Positions 5,481 through 50,953 of a DNA stretch of 64,000 bases are shown piece by piece. The notes beneath the pieces are model-generated. The model worked only from the letters and a program-made list of their open reading frames with translations. It was not told the origin of the DNA and did not search any database. Origin of the DNA: Escherichia phage vB-Eco-KMB38. How positions within the stretch are numbered: the stretch's first letter is position 1; each line of letters opens with the position of its first letter. The position numbers and the translations under genes were made by a program. The DNA lies in sequence record OR525701.1; one strand, 5' to 3'.

Positions 5481-5523
5481 GTTGTCTCCTCGTTATGAAG
5501 GTATTCTATCATCCTAAATCTAA

Positions 5524-5545
5524 AGCAAAAAGGGCCGAAGCCCTT
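5524..5545 (-). terminator. hairpin AAGGGC-UUCG-GCCCUU plus U tract overlapping goF stop
   Basis: inverted repeat followed by T-run on minus strand. Confidence 0.55.
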
Positions 5546-5969
5546 ATTTAAATTTAATTTTCTGAAGTGCATCAATTGCAGCCAGGCGCCCTTGTTCACT
5601 TTTAACTGTAATGACCACATCGCCTGATACGATCACCGAACCATCAACAAATTCTATAGAGCCTTTTTTGAAATCAACAGATGTATCTGGTTCCGGAACT
5701 TCTTCAAAGAATTTAAATTCTGCACCATAAAGCAGAATATCACCTTGCATACTATGAATAGTTCGGCCATAATCGCCTACGGCTTCTACAGCAATCACTG
5801 AAACACCATAACCAATCATCTCTTCCACAATAAAATCTTTAGACAATAAAGTAGTATGCAGATTAGTATTAAGACGTTTACCAGTCGTATTAAGAATTCT
5901 CAAGAAATTATCTTCCTGTCCTTTGATAATACGATATTTCTTACCAACTTCAAAACCTTTAAAAGCCAT
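5544..5969 (-). CDS. goF: goF-like protein (141 aa)
   Basis: 141 aa ORF at T4 goF position downstream of gene 39; same length as T4 goF as I recall it. Confidence 0.5.
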   Translation of the reverse strand: MAFKGFEVGKKYRIIKGQEDNFLRILNTTGKRLNTNLHTTLLSKDFIVEEMIGYGVSVIAVEAVGDYGRTIHSMQGDILLYGAEFKFFEEVPEPDTSVDFKKGSIEFVDGSVIVSGDVVITVKSEQGRLAAIDALQKIKFK

Positions 5970-5971
5970 AA

Positions 5972-6151
5972 TTAACCCTTCTTAAGTAAGTCGTAAAAAC
6001 CACCGTTCACATGTTTAGGAGCAGAAACCCGACGAGTAGACAGACGATGACATTCAGGGCAAACATCGTTTTCTCGTTCAGAAATTCTTTTAATTTTTTC
6101 ATATTCATGACCACAATCTTCGGATTGACATTTATAGTCGTATAACGGCAT
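5972..6151 (-). CDS. small zinc-ribbon protein (59 aa, below ORF-track cutoff)
   Basis: ATG start overlapping upstream stop (TAATG); CxxC...CxxC pairs (CQSEDC...CPEC); translated by hand from sequence. Confidence 0.5.
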   Translation of the reverse strand: MPLYDYKCQSEDCGHEYEKIKRISERENDVCPECHRLSTRRVSAPKHVNGGFYDLLKKG

Positions 6152-6564
6152 TATTGTTCCTTAAAGTGAGCTTTCAACATTTGATACAAAGACCATGCCT
6201 GGTCGTTATTTTCGATAGTAATTGTCATCACTGGAAATTCAGACAATTCGTCAAGTTCATCAGAATCTTGCTCTTCGGACGCTTGATATGGATTTCCAAC
6301 TTCGTCAAAGAACTCTGCTTCATTCGTGGAGAGCCAGATAAAGTTTTCATCAAGGATATCACCACCCGTGTCGTATCCAACCGTGCCAGTAGATGTCACA
6401 ATTTTAGTAGGACGACCAAGATGGTCAACATCTAATACTTTAAATGGTTCCATGCCAAGACGTCGTGCATAAATCCCATTATCAGTGTGGTTTTTAATAA
6501 ACTCTTCTTGGGCACGTTTATCTTTAAATTGGTACCATGAGTTAACGCGGAATTTATTAGCCAT
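6151..6564 (-). CDS. hypothetical protein (acidic C-terminal region)
   Basis: ORF-track 6151..6582; start re-set to ATG (MANKF) preceded by GGAAGGAAAC RBS and overlapping upstream stop. Confidence 0.6.
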
Positions 6565-6791
6565 TAGTAAGTTTCCTTCCAATAAGTTGTACCGTTTTCA
6601 GTGATTTCACGGAAGATACCGTAGATAGGCATTTCATCACCGAGTTTTTCGTAAACGTAAACCACTTCGGTGTAGCATAAAAATCCGGTCCAGTTTTTCT
6701 GTACAACAACTAAATCAGGATTAAACAGAACATCTTCAAACTCATCGATGTTTGAATCAGTAGTTACGTTTTTAATGATTTGACGTTTCAT
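6564..6791 (-). CDS. hypothetical protein
   Basis: ORF-track 6564..6836; likely start at internal ATG (MKRQII) with AAGAGGAGAA RBS, downstream of promoter at 6820-6848. Confidence 0.5.
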
Positions 6792-6819
6792 AATATTCTC
6801 CTCTTGTTTTGATAGGTCT

Positions 6820-6848
6820 ATAGTATCATAGACCATAGTTGTTGTACA
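6820..6848 (-). promoter_or_regulatory. T4-type early promoter (-35 TGTACA, -10 TACTAT)
   Basis: sigma70-like hexamers with 17 bp spacer on minus strand; -10 embedded in dyad GGTCTAT..ATAGACC. Confidence 0.45.
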
Positions 6849-7373
6849 TCATTTTAGCAAAATAAAATCAACTTGTTCTGCCAATGAACGTCTAAACATT
6901 AATTGACAACTTCCGAGGATGAAATCAGGTGCTTCATAGACCGCGATGTAGTATCCTTTAGCTTTCAAGAGTTCAACATCCACCTGGTCATCAAACCATG
7001 CATAAACCGCGTCAACGCTTTCAAATCCAAAATAGAACCCTTGAGCCCAATCTTCACTCAATTCAAATGTGTGCTCAATTCTATAGTATCTTAAGATATT
7101 TTGTTCAAGGAGTTTGTCTTCATTTACTGTAGGACGATTAGGGACATTATAGTTGTCGCCGTGATGGTAGAAGTTACCTGAGAGTATTCCATGCTTATCA
7201 AGGAACTCCCATGTTTCTTCAGAGTTGTCGGTGCCCGACCAACCGTATGGCGAGCGAGGTTCTTTATTCCAAGAGGTTTCCCAAATTCTGACGGCTTTAC
7301 CGTCTTCGATAGCAATTCCTGGTAATGATTCACGTTGAGTGCAAAAACTACGTTCTACGCGGTAAACTAACAT
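6849..7373 (-). CDS. hypothetical protein
   Basis: 174 aa ORF, ATG start with GAGGAG RBS. Confidence 0.65.
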   Translation of the reverse strand: MLVYRVERSFCTQRESLPGIAIEDGKAVRIWETSWNKEPRSPYGWSGTDNSEETWEFLDKHGILSGNFYHHGDNYNVPNRPTVNEDKLLEQNILRYYRIEHTFELSEDWAQGFYFGFESVDAVYAWFDDQVDVELLKAKGYYIAVYEAPDFILGSCQLMFRRSLAEQVDFILLK

Positions 7374-7398
7374 ATTATTCTCCTCTGGTTGATATGGT

Positions 7399-7427
7399 TA
7401 TAATATCAAAACCAGAGGAGAAGTAAA
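7399..7427 (-). promoter_or_regulatory. T4-type early promoter (-35 GTTTAC, 17 bp, -10 TATTAT)
   Basis: match to T4 early promoter consensus on minus strand upstream of 6849..7373. Confidence 0.55.
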
Positions 7428-7432
7428 CAACT

Positions 7433-7852
7433 TTATGCGAAAGCAGCTGGGCTATATTTTTTAATTTGGAATTCAGGAACTACCATGAACTGACCAGCGA
7501 AAACGATGTTATAAAGCTTAACACCATCTTCTACCCAACGGTCGCTAATAAATCCGGCGATTTGCTTAGTTTTCTATGGCGTTCCATCAGTTGCCGCAGC
7601 AATAGTGAATTCATGGTCTTTTTCAACAGAAACTGATCTGCATAGTCCCCATTTGAACGCTTTTTCTTCTGGCTCAATGAACTGGCTTGAGACGTAGCCA
7701 ATATTACCATTAGCATCACGAACTTTAACTTGGTTACGACCAAAAACCGGATCACTCACAGAAAGAACTTCAACCAACTTCCCGGCAACTTTAGAGCGAG
7801 AAGCAACAGATACATATACGTAATCACCTGTAGAGAGATTTACAATATTCAT
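7433..7852 (-). pseudogene. third member of a paralog family interrupted by an in-frame TAG at 7574-7576 (N-terminal 92 aa ORF 7577..7852, C-terminal 45 codons continue in frame to TAA at 7433)
   Basis: hand translation: ...AAATDGTP*KTKQIAGFISDRWVEDGVKLYNIVFAGQFMVV...; both halves align to paralogs 7862..8347 and 8409..8903. Confidence 0.55.
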
Positions 7853-7861
7853 AATAATTCC

Positions 7862-8347
7862 TTAAGCTTTACGAGGAGACACATAGCGAGTGATTTCGGA
7901 TTCTTTAACAACTCGGAAGTCACCTAAGAATACGATATTGTATAACTTTTCACCATCTTCTACCCATTGGTCACTAATGAAGCCACACATGGTATCAGTT
8001 GTGCTTGGATAACCATATTCATCGATGAAGTCAAATTCTTTATCAGTCTGGAATTCAACACCTTTACACAAGGCCCATTTGAACTGTACATTAGGCTCTG
8101 TGGATTCAACTTTTTCTCTTGAAGCAAAAGCACTACTCGCAGGAGTTTCCAAGAACTTTGCACGAACATAAGCGAACTGAGTTTCCCTCGACCCAAGACT
8201 AGGAATAATACGAACTTTTACCTCAGAATCTTCATCTTTAACGCCTTCTTTAAGTTGAATACTTACAACTTCGACCAATTTTCCTGCTGCTTTAGAACGA
8301 GATTTGTTAGATACGCGAACGATTTCACCAATAATACCAAGATTCAT
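7862..8347 (-). CDS. hypothetical protein, paralog family member (shared C-terminal motif DQWVEDGxxLxNxVxxGDFxVV)
   Basis: 161 aa ORF; N-terminus similar to 7577..7852 (KxAGKLVEVxS), C-terminus similar to 8409..8903. Confidence 0.7.
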   Translation of the reverse strand: MNLGIIGEIVRVSNKSRSKAAGKLVEVVSIQLKEGVKDEDSEVKVRIIPSLGSRETQFAYVRAKFLETPASSAFASREKVESTEPNVQFKWALCKGVEFQTDKEFDFIDEYGYPSTTDTMCGFISDQWVEDGEKLYNIVFLGDFRVVKESEITRYVSPRKA

Positions 8348-8375
8348 AATTTTCTCTCTTTGTTTAAGTTGAATT

Positions 8376-8404
8376 CATTATACTCCATCCGTCCTTGGAT
8401 GTAC
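8376..8404 (-). promoter_or_regulatory. T4-type early promoter (-35 TGTACA, -10 TATAAT)
   Basis: hexamers with 17 bp spacer containing CCAAGGACGG. Confidence 0.5.
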
Positions 8405-8408
8405 AACA

Positions 8409-8903
8409 TTAATTAAGGATATTAACCACAGCACTACGTGGAACTACACTAAAATCACCTGCATGAACAACGTTCAGAAGTTCAACACCGTCTTCAATCC
8501 ATTGGTCAGTTACCCATCCATTTACTGGACCAGCGAATGGGCGTCGAATTGAAACATATTTACACAACAAATCAGTAGGCTCAATAGGCTTAATCAGAGT
8601 ACCGTACATACAAGCGATATCCATATCAATACAGATATCTTTAACGGGTTCTACTTCTTCAATCAACAGTTCAAAGTCGGTGCTTGGAAGGGCGGTGGTA
8701 GAAATTGTACCATATGAATTTTTAATTTCTAAGAATAACCAAGGGCCTTCAACTTGTTTGATGAAGTTAACAATAGTGAAACTATTACCTTGAGTGGCAC
8801 CTAAAATTTCACAAAACTTTTCATAAGCTCGCACTGAAGCACCGTACCAGTTGATTTGTTTTTCATCTTTCAGGATGTAAGTAGCCGTAGTATTGATATT
8901 CAT
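8409..8903 (-). CDS. hypothetical protein, paralog family member
   Basis: 164 aa ORF; C-terminal WVTDQWIEDGVELLNVVHAGDFSVV matches paralogs. Confidence 0.7.
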   Translation of the reverse strand: MNINTTATYILKDEKQINWYGASVRAYEKFCEILGATQGNSFTIVNFIKQVEGPWLFLEIKNSYGTISTTALPSTDFELLIEEVEPVKDICIDMDIACMYGTLIKPIEPTDLLCKYVSIRRPFAGPVNGWVTDQWIEDGVELLNVVHAGDFSVVPRSAVVNILN

Positions 8904-8933
8904 AATGTTTTCCTGTTTGGTTAAGATAGAAAG

Positions 8934-8963
8934 ATTATACTCAAACCATCCTTGGTTGTAAAC
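8934..8963 (-). promoter_or_regulatory. T4-type early promoter (-35 GTTTAC, -10 TATAAT)
   Basis: hexamers with 18 bp spacer AACCAAGGATGGTTTGAG. Confidence 0.5.
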
Positions 8964-8968
8964 TGGTT

Positions 8969-9646
8969 TTATCGCTGTTTTACACTTAACGGGTCAGGAT
9001 TCTCAGGGACATCTTCAAGGCCAAGCGCATAACGCTGAGCATATTTTAACATCAAAATATCTTTAGCACAATCGTGAATACTATCATGGGCAACGAATCC
9101 TTTTAGCGTACCCATCGGTAATGGACACATACTTAATCCTCGTGTCAACGAGTAAGCTTCGATTGCCGTACGAATATCACGTTGAGCCCAGAATTTAACA
9201 GGTTCTAATTTATCAGTATCAATATCTGGTTCAAGAACACCTTCATCACGATAGAGGTCACGAATCAAATCGACCAATATCGGGAAGTCAAAGCTCATAC
9301 CACGGCACCACATCTGTGATTTCCATTGGTCAACTTTATTAGCTCGACAATAATCTAAAAAGATTTTAATGCCTTCAAGCGTAGTGACATCGTCTTCAGA
9401 CGGAGCCAAGTTTTTACGCGCTTCAGCCGATTGTTCTTTCCACCATTTCATAGTGGATTTAGCGAAAACTCGCTTCCCTTTCTGAGAAGCTAAATTAAAT
9501 TTAATTCGCTTACCTCGTTGAACAAGTTCTTCAAATGATTCAACAACTTCAGGGTCGGAATTATATGCAATAACCGCAAGGTCAATAACAGCCGCTTTTG
9601 ATGTATTGCCGAATGTTTCAAAATCTATAATAACATCAGTGCTCAT
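8969..9646 (-). CDS. dexA: exonuclease A (DEDD 3'-5' exonuclease)
   Basis: 225 aa; DFETFG exo motif; position upstream of dda as in T4. Confidence 0.8.
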   Translation of the reverse strand: MSTDVIIDFETFGNTSKAAVIDLAVIAYNSDPEVVESFEELVQRGKRIKFNLASQKGKRVFAKSTMKWWKEQSAEARKNLAPSEDDVTTLEGIKIFLDYCRANKVDQWKSQMWCRGMSFDFPILVDLIRDLYRDEGVLEPDIDTDKLEPVKFWAQRDIRTAIEAYSLTRGLSMCPLPMGTLKGFVAHDSIHDCAKDILMLKYAQRYALGLEDVPENPDPLSVKQR

Positions 9647-9655
9647 AATTTTCTC

Positions 9656-10969
9656 TCAAATAAAATGGACGTCAAAACGACCACGAGTTGTGCCGACATA
9701 CAATAACTGTTTAGCTAATTCTGAATCGGCATAATGGATACACGGTGTATAAACAAAGGCTGTGTCAACAGACATACCCTGGGCCTTATGGAAGGTTGAT
9801 ACTGGTAGTGCCTTCACCTTAGTGAACATACGTTTAGCATCCCAGAATTCGCTCCATGGAGCTTTACCACCTTTATTCCAGAATTTGTATGTTTCTGCGG
9901 TCTTAGCCAAAAACAAATTGAATTTATAAAGCTCTTCTTCAGAAGAAATAACCTTTATATCTTCGCGGATGTATTCTTCATCATCACCATATGTTTCTAC
10001 TGTAAGATTCCAGTATCGTATCATATATTCGCCTGAAACACCACGTGCTTTAACGAATGTAGACGTTTCTACAGCATCTCGAATACGAACGAATTGCCCG
10101 TTATTGAAAAGCATTTCGGTCATATTTTTACCATCTAGCTTATATGTCTTAGTAAATGGCTCTTGTAGAACAATGACTTCGTCTTTAATAAATGGTTTTT
10201 CTGTTTCAAGAAGTTTTCGGCGAATAATTGAATTTAACTTGTCCACCGACTTATTTGTGAATGCCATCATTCGATTTTCGAAAAGGTCTTCAGGAGTTTT
10301 AACGACGTTAAAATAGTTCATCATATACGATTTAAGGTCTGTATATCCATGAACACCGTGTCCATCAACTACTTTATCGTAAATCCATTTGCCATTACGA
10401 ATATCAGTCGCAACATCAATAATTGGTGCATTGCTACGTTTAACTTCTGTAAGGTTGCATTGCACGAAGTCTTTGTGAGTGAAGAAAGGACTTAGATACG
10501 CAGTTGATTCGCCTGGGTCTACCGGTCGAATCTGGCATCGGTCACCAATTCCAATTACTGTGCACCATTTAGGGATACTAGCTAACATTATTTTAAACAG
10601 AGGACGGTCGCACATTGACGCTTCATCAAATAACAGTACACGACACAAGGCTAAGTCGGGAACCTTTTTCTGTTCAAACAATACGTTTTCTTCGTATGTA
10701 GTTGGGTTGATTTTAAGAATGCTATGAATAGTCGATGCTTCTTGACCCGCAAGTTTGCTTAGAACCTTTTTAGCAGCATGTGTAGGGGCTGCTAAAATAA
10801 TACCTGATTCTCCAGAAGAAATAAGGGCTTCAACGATGAATCTAGTAAGGGTTGTTTTACCTGTACCAGCGGGTCCATTAATAGTTACATGATGTTTCTT
10901 TTCTTTAATAGCTTCCATAACAACGTTGAAGGCGTTTTTCTGGCCTTCAGTCAAATCATCAAATGTCAT
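9656..10969 (-). CDS. dda: Dda DNA helicase (SF1B)
   Basis: 437 aa; Walker A GPAGTGKTT; T4 dda is 439 aa at same position. Confidence 0.9.
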   Translation of the reverse strand: MTFDDLTEGQKNAFNVVMEAIKEKKHHVTINGPAGTGKTTLTRFIVEALISSGESGIILAAPTHAAKKVLSKLAGQEASTIHSILKINPTTYEENVLFEQKKVPDLALCRVLLFDEASMCDRPLFKIMLASIPKWCTVIGIGDRCQIRPVDPGESTAYLSPFFTHKDFVQCNLTEVKRSNAPIIDVATDIRNGKWIYDKVVDGHGVHGYTDLKSYMMNYFNVVKTPEDLFENRMMAFTNKSVDKLNSIIRRKLLETEKPFIKDEVIVLQEPFTKTYKLDGKNMTEMLFNNGQFVRIRDAVETSTFVKARGVSGEYMIRYWNLTVETYGDDEEYIREDIKVISSEEELYKFNLFLAKTAETYKFWNKGGKAPWSEFWDAKRMFTKVKALPVSTFHKAQGMSVDTAFVYTPCIHYADSELAKQLLYVGTTRGRFDVHFI

Positions 10970-11277
10970 CGTAAAGTCCCTGCAATTGGAATACTAACAA
11001 TACGGCCTGTGTCCAGGATTCGTTGATACAATCTTTGCGTCTCCGCATCTAGTTTAACGTGTTTCATTTCAAGCTTATTAAACCAGAACTTACGCGGAGT
11101 TTCGACCATTCTTAGAACTCCCATTTTTAAATCTGTTTTATACTGTGTTTTCAAAGTATCGAAAACTTTATCTGCAATATCCTTTCTAAAAAATACTGCA
11201 GGACGATGCTCATCAAGTGGGACCGGGACAGTAAATCCTTCCATATCTCGATAAACTATTGCATATACATAAACCAT
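10966..11277 (-). CDS. hypothetical protein (dda.1 position)
   Basis: 103 aa ORF with ATGA overlap to dda. Confidence 0.55.
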   Translation of the reverse strand: MVYVYAIVYRDMEGFTVPVPLDEHRPAVFFRKDIADKVFDTLKTQYKTDLKMGVLRMVETPRKFWFNKLEMKHVKLDAETQRLYQRILDTGRIVSIPIAGTLR

Positions 11278-26041: not shown

Positions 26042-26319
26042 GTTTACCTCAATACAATTTATTATATACTCAATTCATAAAGCTTATTTGAATTTCTTGG
26101 CAATGTTGATATAACGTAAAGCTTCACCATCAATACTTCCAAGAACACTATGAAGAAATGCATCAGCTTAGTATTCCAATTGAACAGGTTCTTTAATCAC
26201 TTTAGCCGCTTTGGTTTCAAACAGGCCCATCAGGGCCTTTTTAAGAATTTGTTCGTTAGTGTTCAGTTTTATAGTCAAAATCTTTTCATTAAGTTGGTGG
26301 TTAAAAGTTTTTCTAGAAA

Positions 26320-27480
26320 TCATTCCGGGTACCTCAAAGCGTCATCAGAGTTAGTTATATCAATAATAGATATAGAGTTTTCTGCTAACCCATTTTTAGA
26401 TAACTGACGTTTATAATATCTTTCACAATATGTACACGTCGTCCCGCAGATTTCATTAGCACAATCGAAATCTGGATGTCTGAACCACCTTTTTTCTAAA
26501 AAGCCATCTAACAAAGAGGTTTCAATATTTACTGTATGTGAAAACTCGGTCTCATTTTCAAGAGTGAAAATAGTCTCTAAAGGCTTCCACAGTTCTAACA
26601 AATTACCTTCAAACTTTTCAGAAGCGTATGCTTCAAGAACTTTCAAAATGTAGTCTGTGCTACCTGTACGTCCTGAAACTTTGAATTGAGTGATACCAAT
26701 ATCATTATAAAGTTTCAAATCTTGAGGACGAACAAAACGAGTTCTCAACCAGTTAAATGGGTCTGTATCACGAGCTTTAATACAGTGCTGCATAGGATAT
26801 CCGTTTAAGGATTTAGCATCATCAGCTGTAACATCAGTACTATGGAAAATATAGCAAGAGTCACGATAGCTACAATGTGTTGTATACCCTTTACCAGCAT
26901 TAGAACAGAACTCATTTACAAGAACTTCAAATATTATATTGTTCTTATTGCAAAACTCTGCTGCACGCTTCAGGAAAGAAACTGAACGGTTCTTATGAAT
27001 TCCACAGCAGACCTTTTTGATATTATACTGGTCATGCAAGTATTTGATTTGAGTTACAGCATCGACATGTAGAATTGTTGAAACTTCAATCTCAATGTCT
27101 TTATTGACTTCACGAACAATTTCCATAACAACAGGGTTAGCGATAGTAATACGCCATACGCCTATTGACCAAAGATACTGAACATAATCCTGAATAGCTT
27201 TCTTCTTCCACTCAACTAGTTCTCTTTTTGAACCAGGATTTATCGTGTTGAGTGTATAGTTAAAGCAAATACCTAATTCGTTACAACGTTTAACGTAATC
27301 TTCTAACATCTTTTTGTCAACGTCAGGAAGCCTAAAATCAGGTCTGGCTGCTACAAAAGCCATTTCTCTTGTAGAGCCGTATACTTCATTTATCAAGCTA
27401 TTAGGATAAGTTTTATTGAGCTCTACGATTTTATCAAGAAGAGCTAAATCAAAATTCGTTCCGATTTTAAAAGTATTCAT
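26320..27480 (-). CDS. Cys-rich enzyme of unknown function (tentative peptidase-U32-like/metal-binding)
   Basis: 386 aa; C-terminal CANEICGTTCTYC cluster and internal CSNAGKGYTTHCSYRDSC; part of island between 42 and 43. Confidence 0.6.
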   Translation of the reverse strand: MNTFKIGTNFDLALLDKIVELNKTYPNSLINEVYGSTREMAFVAARPDFRLPDVDKKMLEDYVKRCNELGICFNYTLNTINPGSKRELVEWKKKAIQDYVQYLWSIGVWRITIANPVVMEIVREVNKDIEIEVSTILHVDAVTQIKYLHDQYNIKKVCCGIHKNRSVSFLKRAAEFCNKNNIIFEVLVNEFCSNAGKGYTTHCSYRDSCYIFHSTDVTADDAKSLNGYPMQHCIKARDTDPFNWLRTRFVRPQDLKLYNDIGITQFKVSGRTGSTDYILKVLEAYASEKFEGNLLELWKPLETIFTLENETEFSHTVNIETSLLDGFLEKRWFRHPDFDCANEICGTTCTYCERYYKRQLSKNGLAENSISIIDITNSDDALRYPE

Positions 27481-50923: not shown

Positions 50924-50953
50924 ATTATACTCCAACCATCCTTGGTTGTAAAC
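50924..50953 (-). promoter_or_regulatory. T4-type early promoter (-35 GTTTAC, -10 TATAAT, spacer AACCAAGGATGGTTGGAG)
   Basis: consensus hexamers; spacer shared with promoters at 8376 and 8934. Confidence 0.5.

Follow-up and report, generated by a model that had tools for sequence, protein, structure and literature searches.

Three consecutive genes lie at positions 7433-8963 of the 64,000 nucleotides of Escherichia phage vB-Eco-KMB38 that we analyzed (record OR525701.1; below, "the window" is this whole stretch). What are these genes, and are they three copies of one gene, each expressed on its own? A sequence-only reading had proposed a tandem family of three paralogs, each preceded by its own early promoter. 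Its location of the three genes was right, and all of them are on the minus strand. It also described their function as unknown, which is outdated: the genes belong to the MotB/MotB.1 family, which has been described in print (PMC6070864, PMC7827196, and PMC12152347). The best explanation, which very probably holds, is that the locus is the motB/motB.1 block of a Mosigvirus, comprising early genes that act on the nucleoid, with a second copy of motB that is broken by a nonsense codon.

Judging by DNA identity, the window is from a Mosigvirus, that is, an RB69-like phage of the T4 type. The nearest relatives of the 2.9 kb around the genes are vB_Eco_F31 (a Mosigvirus) and ECO111 5-P, at 99.1-99.2% identity, and many RB69-group phages are 96-98% identical across the same 2.9 kb. 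The local order on the minus strand is dda, dexA, motB.1, motB, the second motB copy, a motB.2-like gene, and cef (Table 1). F31, phiE142, CAU_ECP01, and RB69 share this order, with three genes between dexA and motB.2; in the relatives, the middle genes are labeled "MotB-like transcriptional regulator," "modifier of transcription," or "hypothetical protein." The motB/motB.1 block lies between dexA and cef, in an early region that the phage can do without. All four genes from motB.1 to the motB.2-like gene are under purifying selection: dN/dS among orthologs is 0.05-0.26 (0.08 for motB.1 and 0.06-0.21 for the second motB copy). These ratios are for orthologs only: at 41% amino acid identity, we assumed that the synonymous sites of the paralogs are saturated.

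Table 1. Features around the motB/motB.1 block, in the order of transcription (window positions)
Feature	Positions	Strand	Basis or detail
dda	9656-10969	minus	
dexA	8969-9646	minus	
Predicted early promoter of motB.1	8934-8963	minus	GTTTACA, 17 nt, TATAAT; 11/12 matches (sigma-70 scan)
motB.1 (164 aa)	8409-8903	minus	
Predicted early promoter of motB	8377-8405	minus	TGTACA, 17 nt, TATAAT; 10/12 matches (sigma-70 scan)
motB (161 aa)	7862-8347	minus	
Second, shorter motB copy (139 codons)	7433-7852	minus	
In-frame TAG (amber), codon 93 of the second motB copy	7574-7576	minus	Codon-by-codon comparison
PeSL-type cassette	7378-7428	minus	Promoter (7427..7400) with 9/12 matches, plus RNA fold
motB.2-like gene (174 aa)	6849-7373	minus	

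The cluster in RB69 (RB69p010, motB, RB69p012, and motB.1) is from the same genus, and its four genes match those of the window in order and spacing; among them, RB69p010 encodes the 139-amino-acid ortholog of the second motB copy. In T4, the order is instead dexA-motB.2-motB.1-motB-cef, versus dexA-motB.1-motB-motB'-motB.2-cef here, and the second motB copy is absent from T4. The place of the motB.2-like gene relative to motB and motB.1 is also swapped. The product of this gene is 34% identical to T4 MotB.2 and belongs to PHROG 1106. It does not match the Pfam motB family and has no similarity to MotB. We therefore rejected the label "transcriptional regulator MotB" that it carries in F31, which we attribute to annotation carry-over. 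Among known RNA families, the sole match within 5500-11000 was to Y_RNA, below the threshold (25.9 bits versus 38), and we took it to be due to chance.

We then asked how the three genes are related. Three kinds of comparison led us to reject low-complexity or chance similarity as the explanation; the former, similarity limited to low-complexity segments, is what the sequence-only reading had named as the result that would undo its claim. First, all three products exceed the gathering threshold (25 bits) of the Pfam family motB (PF17613): MotB scores 182.4 bits, the second copy scores 75.6 bits (with codon 93 read as W), and MotB.1 scores 35.1 bits, with a match that is confined to its C-terminal 76 residues (84-159). 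Second, by blastp, the second copy is 41% identical to MotB over 150 amino acids (E = 1e-27), while MotB.1 is 44-55% identical to one or the other over just the last 29-36 amino acids (E about 1e-9). Third, when we aligned an alignment of 30 MotB sequences to one of 31 MotB.1 sequences with hhalign, they matched across 80 columns with 98.5% probability (E = 2.7e-15). According to these alignments, motB and the second copy are full-length paralogs, and motB.1 shares the C-terminal domain alone (about 60 residues).

The proposal of a tandem amplification of early host-takeover genes thus needs to be qualified: the genes are paralogs of that kind, but they did not arise by a uniform three-fold amplification. 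The N-terminal segment KxAGKLVEVxS, which was thought to be common to all three, is present in the second copy (SKVAGKLVEVLS) and in MotB (SKAAGKLVEVVS), but the N terminus of MotB.1 is unrelated. The C-terminal segment is genuinely shared by the three genes, but in the second copy it lies beyond the in-frame TAG, which the sequence-only reading missed.

MotB from the window is the ortholog of T4 MotB (58.6% identity over its full length, E = 1e-60). In the AF2 model, its N-terminal domain (residues about 6-67) is a KOW/SH3-like barrel, residues 70-85 form a disordered linker, and the C-terminal domain (about 88-156), which holds the core DQWVEDGEKLYNIVFLGDFRVV, is a beta domain. This combination of a KOW-like N-terminal domain, with the motif SRSKxAGKLVEV, and the conserved C-terminal domain is the two-domain architecture of MotB, and like T4 motB, the gene lies in the early, dispensable region between dexA and cef. 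The second copy is shorter (37% identity to T4 MotB; pI 7.8) and has the same two domains. In each of the three proteins, a flexible linker joins the N-terminal domain to the C-terminal beta domain, whose near-invariant core is DQW-EDG-L-NVV.

MotB.1 from the window lacks the KOW-like domain. Because its N-terminal domain is different, we assigned it to the MotB.1 branch (categories 2 and 4 of PMC7827196), whose members combine the core GWVTDQWIEDGVELLNVVHAG with an N-terminal domain that is not KOW-like, as this protein does. It consists of an alpha/beta domain unlike the N-terminal domain of MotB, a linker, and the conserved C-terminal domain (residues about 107-164, encoded at 8412-8585, with the core GWVTDQWIEDGVELLNVVHAGDFSVVPRS). 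It matches PHROG 2333 (E = 1.7e-82; PHROG matches within the family are to 1671 and 2333), is 37% identical to T4 MotB.1 over 134 amino acids, and has a pI of 4.5. The AF2 model has a mean pLDDT of 78.9, with about 90 for the C-terminal domain. The N-terminal domain of MotB.1 has been classed as LSm-like, in a family with GoF and Frd.2, and motB.1 mutants had no phenotype (Kim et al. 2025, PMC12152347). The modeled N-terminal domain of our protein is small and beta-rich, with helices. Compared to T4 MotB.1, our protein has about 20 additional residues in the linker (DMDIACMYGTLIKP) and a complete C-terminal domain; the reference T4 MotB.1 (119 amino acids) ends within the C-terminal core.

Much of this framework is already known. 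MotB homologs fall into four categories; MotB and MotB.1 have a common C-terminal domain and differing N-terminal domains, and one was suggested to be a duplicate of the other; and in RB69, motB is present twice, alongside one motB.1 and a peptide of 29 amino acids (Patterson-West et al. 2021, PMC7827196). The gene family, its domain logic, and the RB69-group arrangement, which was published for RB69 in 2021, are not new.

Joined as it is to a different N-terminal domain, the C-terminal module of motB.1 points to domain shuffling. The MotB.1-type core is invariant at 21 positions across 31 aligned sequences, and the N-terminal parts to which it is fused are of at least four architectures (proteins of about 143-169, 176-183, 241-252, and 145-199 amino acids, with a KOW-like N terminus in the last class). 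An exhaustive HMMER search with the 58-amino-acid C-terminal domain against 1.84 billion representatives returned 24 matches. We rejected the long ones (587-2595 amino acids, matching in many stretches) as repetitive, unrelated proteins, of which we inspected three. Thus, the C-terminal module is found only in short proteins that T4-type phages encode, and it evolves by domain shuffling and gene duplication. We also observed a short linker motif, D-x-D-[IV]-x-S/C-x-Y-x-x-x-[IV]-x-P, that recurs in MotB.1-type proteins, both between modules and at annotated N termini. Some of the MotB.1-type members of 241-252 amino acids have two N-terminal modules that are separated by this motif. A search by sequence for solved structures gave none below E = 0.3, and no KOW or SH3 sequence profile was matched significantly.

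What might these proteins do? Most of what is known concerns T4 MotB (modifier of transcription B). It is an early protein, highly toxic in E. coli, that binds DNA tightly and non-specifically, copurifies with H-NS and StpA, and doubles the burst size (Patterson-West et al. 2018, PMC6070864). At proV, it overrides the footprint of H-NS, and it raises the expression of 75 host genes, of which a third belong to the H-NS regulon (PMC7827196). Knocking down motB leaves the transcriptome of T4 almost unchanged (PMC6070864, PMC7827196). By homology, MotB from the window would bind DNA non-specifically, coating it, and would override or reshape the complexes of H-NS or StpA with DNA in favor of infection (PMC6070864, PMC7827196); host genes that are silenced by H-NS would be derepressed, and the burst size would rise about two-fold. 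The paralogs would have one C-terminal module in common, mounted on differing N-terminal barrels that bind nucleic acids or proteins. Each would be dispensable alone, as an accessory factor.

However, T4 MotB has a pI of 9.2, while its ortholog here is acidic (pI 5.2). It is uncertain whether non-specific DNA binding, the change in the H-NS footprint, and toxicity transfer from T4 MotB to this acidic protein. More broadly, the pI of MotB orthologs varies between 5.0 and 9.4, and every MotB.1-type protein is acidic (4.5-6.8), so charge-driven DNA binding is not a conserved trait of the family. The conserved acidic core may be a surface for protein docking.

We also considered whether the C-terminal domain, for which an OB-fold (cold-shock-like) structure was proposed in MotB (PMC7827196), might instead be an SH3/Tudor-like barrel that docks onto proteins rather than binding DNA. 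It would tether the KOW-like, LSm-like, and other N-terminal barrels to one host target (H-NS/StpA or RNA polymerase), and DNA binding would be an addition that is specific to T4 and due to basic residues. We hold this to be possible, if somewhat unlikely.

As for expression, the sequence-only reading had given each gene its own early promoter. Two of these promoters stand: we found sites upstream of motB.1 and of motB (Table 1). The promoter of motB.1 has no mismatches to GTTTAC-N18-TATAAT, which is a match to the consensus only. Another early promoter, at position 50953 of the window, has nearly the same spacer. The promoter of motB lies inside the 61-nt gap between the stop codon of motB.1 and the start of motB. 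The third promoter does not hold up: a sigma-70 scan of the minus strand found no site with 9/12 or more matches upstream of the second motB copy, which starts just 9 nt past the stop codon of motB and has its own ribosome-binding site (AAGGA). The second copy would be cotranscribed with motB, and host RNA polymerase would transcribe the block immediately after infection from the two early promoters, which would be strong, with no need for a phage factor.

A further promoter, at 7427..7400, lies downstream of the second motB copy and is predicted to serve the motB.2-like gene. It is part of a cassette of the promoter-early stem-loop (PeSL) type, which is known from T4-type phages (PMC2839356, PMC4122927). 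The cassette comprises GTTTAC, a 5' arm (UUCUCCUCUGGUU), a loop with the -10 element TATTAT, and a 3' arm (AACCAGAGGAGAA). Within the 3' arm is the ribosome-binding site of the motB.2-like gene (whose ATG is at 7373). The hairpin has a predicted stability of -24.6 kcal/mol (z = -5.3), and none of 200 shuffled sequences were as stable. As in other PeSL cassettes, a stable stem-loop in a hyperplastic region encloses an early promoter and includes the ribosome-binding site of the next gene; the promoters of motB.1 and motB are not in such a stem-loop. In RNA that reads through from upstream, the ribosome-binding site would be masked, and in RNA from the cassette's own promoter, it would be unmasked. 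Elements of the same design are found at about 20355 and 57933 of the window. The cassette marks where the motB block stops and does not belong to the paralog family.

The second motB copy has an in-frame amber codon. Codon 93 is TAG here, but it is TGG (Trp) in F31, phiE142, CAU_ECP01, and ECO111 5-P, and it encodes Trp in RB69 as well; all five of these phages have the intact form of 139 amino acids. Because of the TAG, the product would have 92 amino acids and would lack the conserved C-terminal core: the motif DRWVEDG...GQFMVV is encoded past the TAG. The 46 codons after the TAG are identical to those of F31, and dN for these codons is zero against all relatives, which implies that the change from TGG to TAG was recent. 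When we compared a 61-nt query across the TAG to other phages by blastn, none of 126 records were identical, and the best matched at 60 of 61 positions. (A 41-nt megablast query across the TAG had no match, but this is uninformative because neighboring synonymous differences break the 28-nt word.) We rejected reading of the TAG by a suppressor tRNA: ARAGORN found no tRNA genes in the 64-kb window, and the other premature stop codon that we identified (see below) is TAA, not TAG, so a common amber suppressor is an unlikely explanation. As read from the codons, the second motB copy appears to be a nonsense allele in this genome, and a real loss of function and a base-call error would account for it equally well.

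If the TAG were an error of sequencing or assembly, then the second motB copy would be intact in the real phage. The change is of a single base, it is shared by none of the 126 other records, and the reading frame past the TAG is perfectly kept, all of which favors an error. However, in the first 50 kb of the window, a comparison of 88 coding sequences to F31 found no frameshifts and two premature stop codons, this one and one in a small accessory gene, and this pattern fits the true loss of dispensable genes just as well. Also, T4 lacks a second motB copy, so its loss is tolerated. Overall, we think that an error is rather unlikely, and we favor a real nonsense allele. The other premature stop is TAA in place of TAC (Tyr) at codon 52 (26168-26170) of a hypothetical gene of 79 amino acids (26084-26323, minus strand).

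Another feature of the second motB copy is that codons 34-40 (7733-7753) occur in two allelic forms among its Mosigvirus relatives (SDPVFGRN versus SCGLFSPH), with nearly identical flanks. Their alternation suggests a small mosaic or recombinant patch.

Relatives of the block are broken in other places. In RB69, motB.1 is broken (132 amino acids plus the 29-amino-acid peptide) and both motB copies are present; here, motB.1 is intact, with 164 amino acids, and it is the second motB copy that is broken. We compared a stretch of RB69 (NC_004928, 2877-3373) and found that its motB.1 and the 29-amino-acid RB69p012 are one gene with two frame changes. By this comparison, what PMC7827196 lists as the 29-amino-acid "Category 3 peptide" is the C-terminal core of motB.1, cut off from the rest of the protein. 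In T4, the reference motB.1 (NC_000866, 7142-7650) ends in GWVTDQWIGRWR and a stop codon, and the next frame continues with the rest of the domain, EDGVELLNVVHAGEYSVVPRSAVVAILN, to its own stop. One extra base inside the conserved C-terminal core shifts the frame. It is found in the two T4 reference records only; it is absent from 11 other T4/T4T records and from RB55 and RB59, and the intact form of MotB.1, with 143 amino acids, is found in 256 contigs. Thus, the T4 MotB.1 of 119 amino acids appears to be a one-base frameshift artifact or a strain variant of the 143-amino-acid protein, and studies in print on "MotB.1, 13.8 kDa" may have dealt with a truncated protein.

Together with the amber codon, these are three natural truncations at the C-terminal module: the nonsense allele here, the broken motB.1 of RB69, and the frameshifted motB.1 of the T4 reference. 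If the invariant module were an SH3/Tudor-like docking domain, and not a DNA-binding OB-fold, that T-even phages shuffle onto different N-terminal barrels to direct several effectors to one host nucleoid target, then its repeated truncation would reflect selection because the domain is toxic, and not neutral decay. We put this forward as speculation, and we regard it as distinctly unlikely.

Alternatively, proteins of the MotB family might act on RNA, after transcription, and not on the nucleoid. KOW and LSm-like barrels typically bind RNA or ribosomes. However, such fold similarity is generic, the near-constancy of the T4 transcriptome in the motB knock-down argues against it, and an RNA reporter assay showed no effect of either GoF or MotB.1 in wild-type form (PMC12152347). 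We consider an action on RNA to be very unlikely. The suggestion of the sequence-only reading that these are anti-defense factors, diversified in tandem during an arms race with host immunity, is highly improbable and finds no support here: the hyperplastic early region with its PeSL-type cassettes is a frequent home of accessory and counter-defense genes, and the N-terminal domains are variable, but the dN/dS among orthologs gives no sign of diversifying selection, one copy was lost here without obvious consequence, and we found no link to a defense system in the literature, where a 2026 paper on the amplification of anti-defense genes mentions MotB only as a DNA-coating protein.

We return to the motB/motB.1 block as early genes acting on the nucleoid. 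As a discovery, this carries little weight, because the family, its domain logic, and its arrangement were published; the value lies in the corrections. The appropriate annotation is motB.1 for the first gene, motB for the next, and second motB copy, nonsense allele, for the last, and the block is served by two promoters only. Finally, the Mosigvirus ortholog of MotB is acidic, which calls for caution in extrapolating from T4 MotB.
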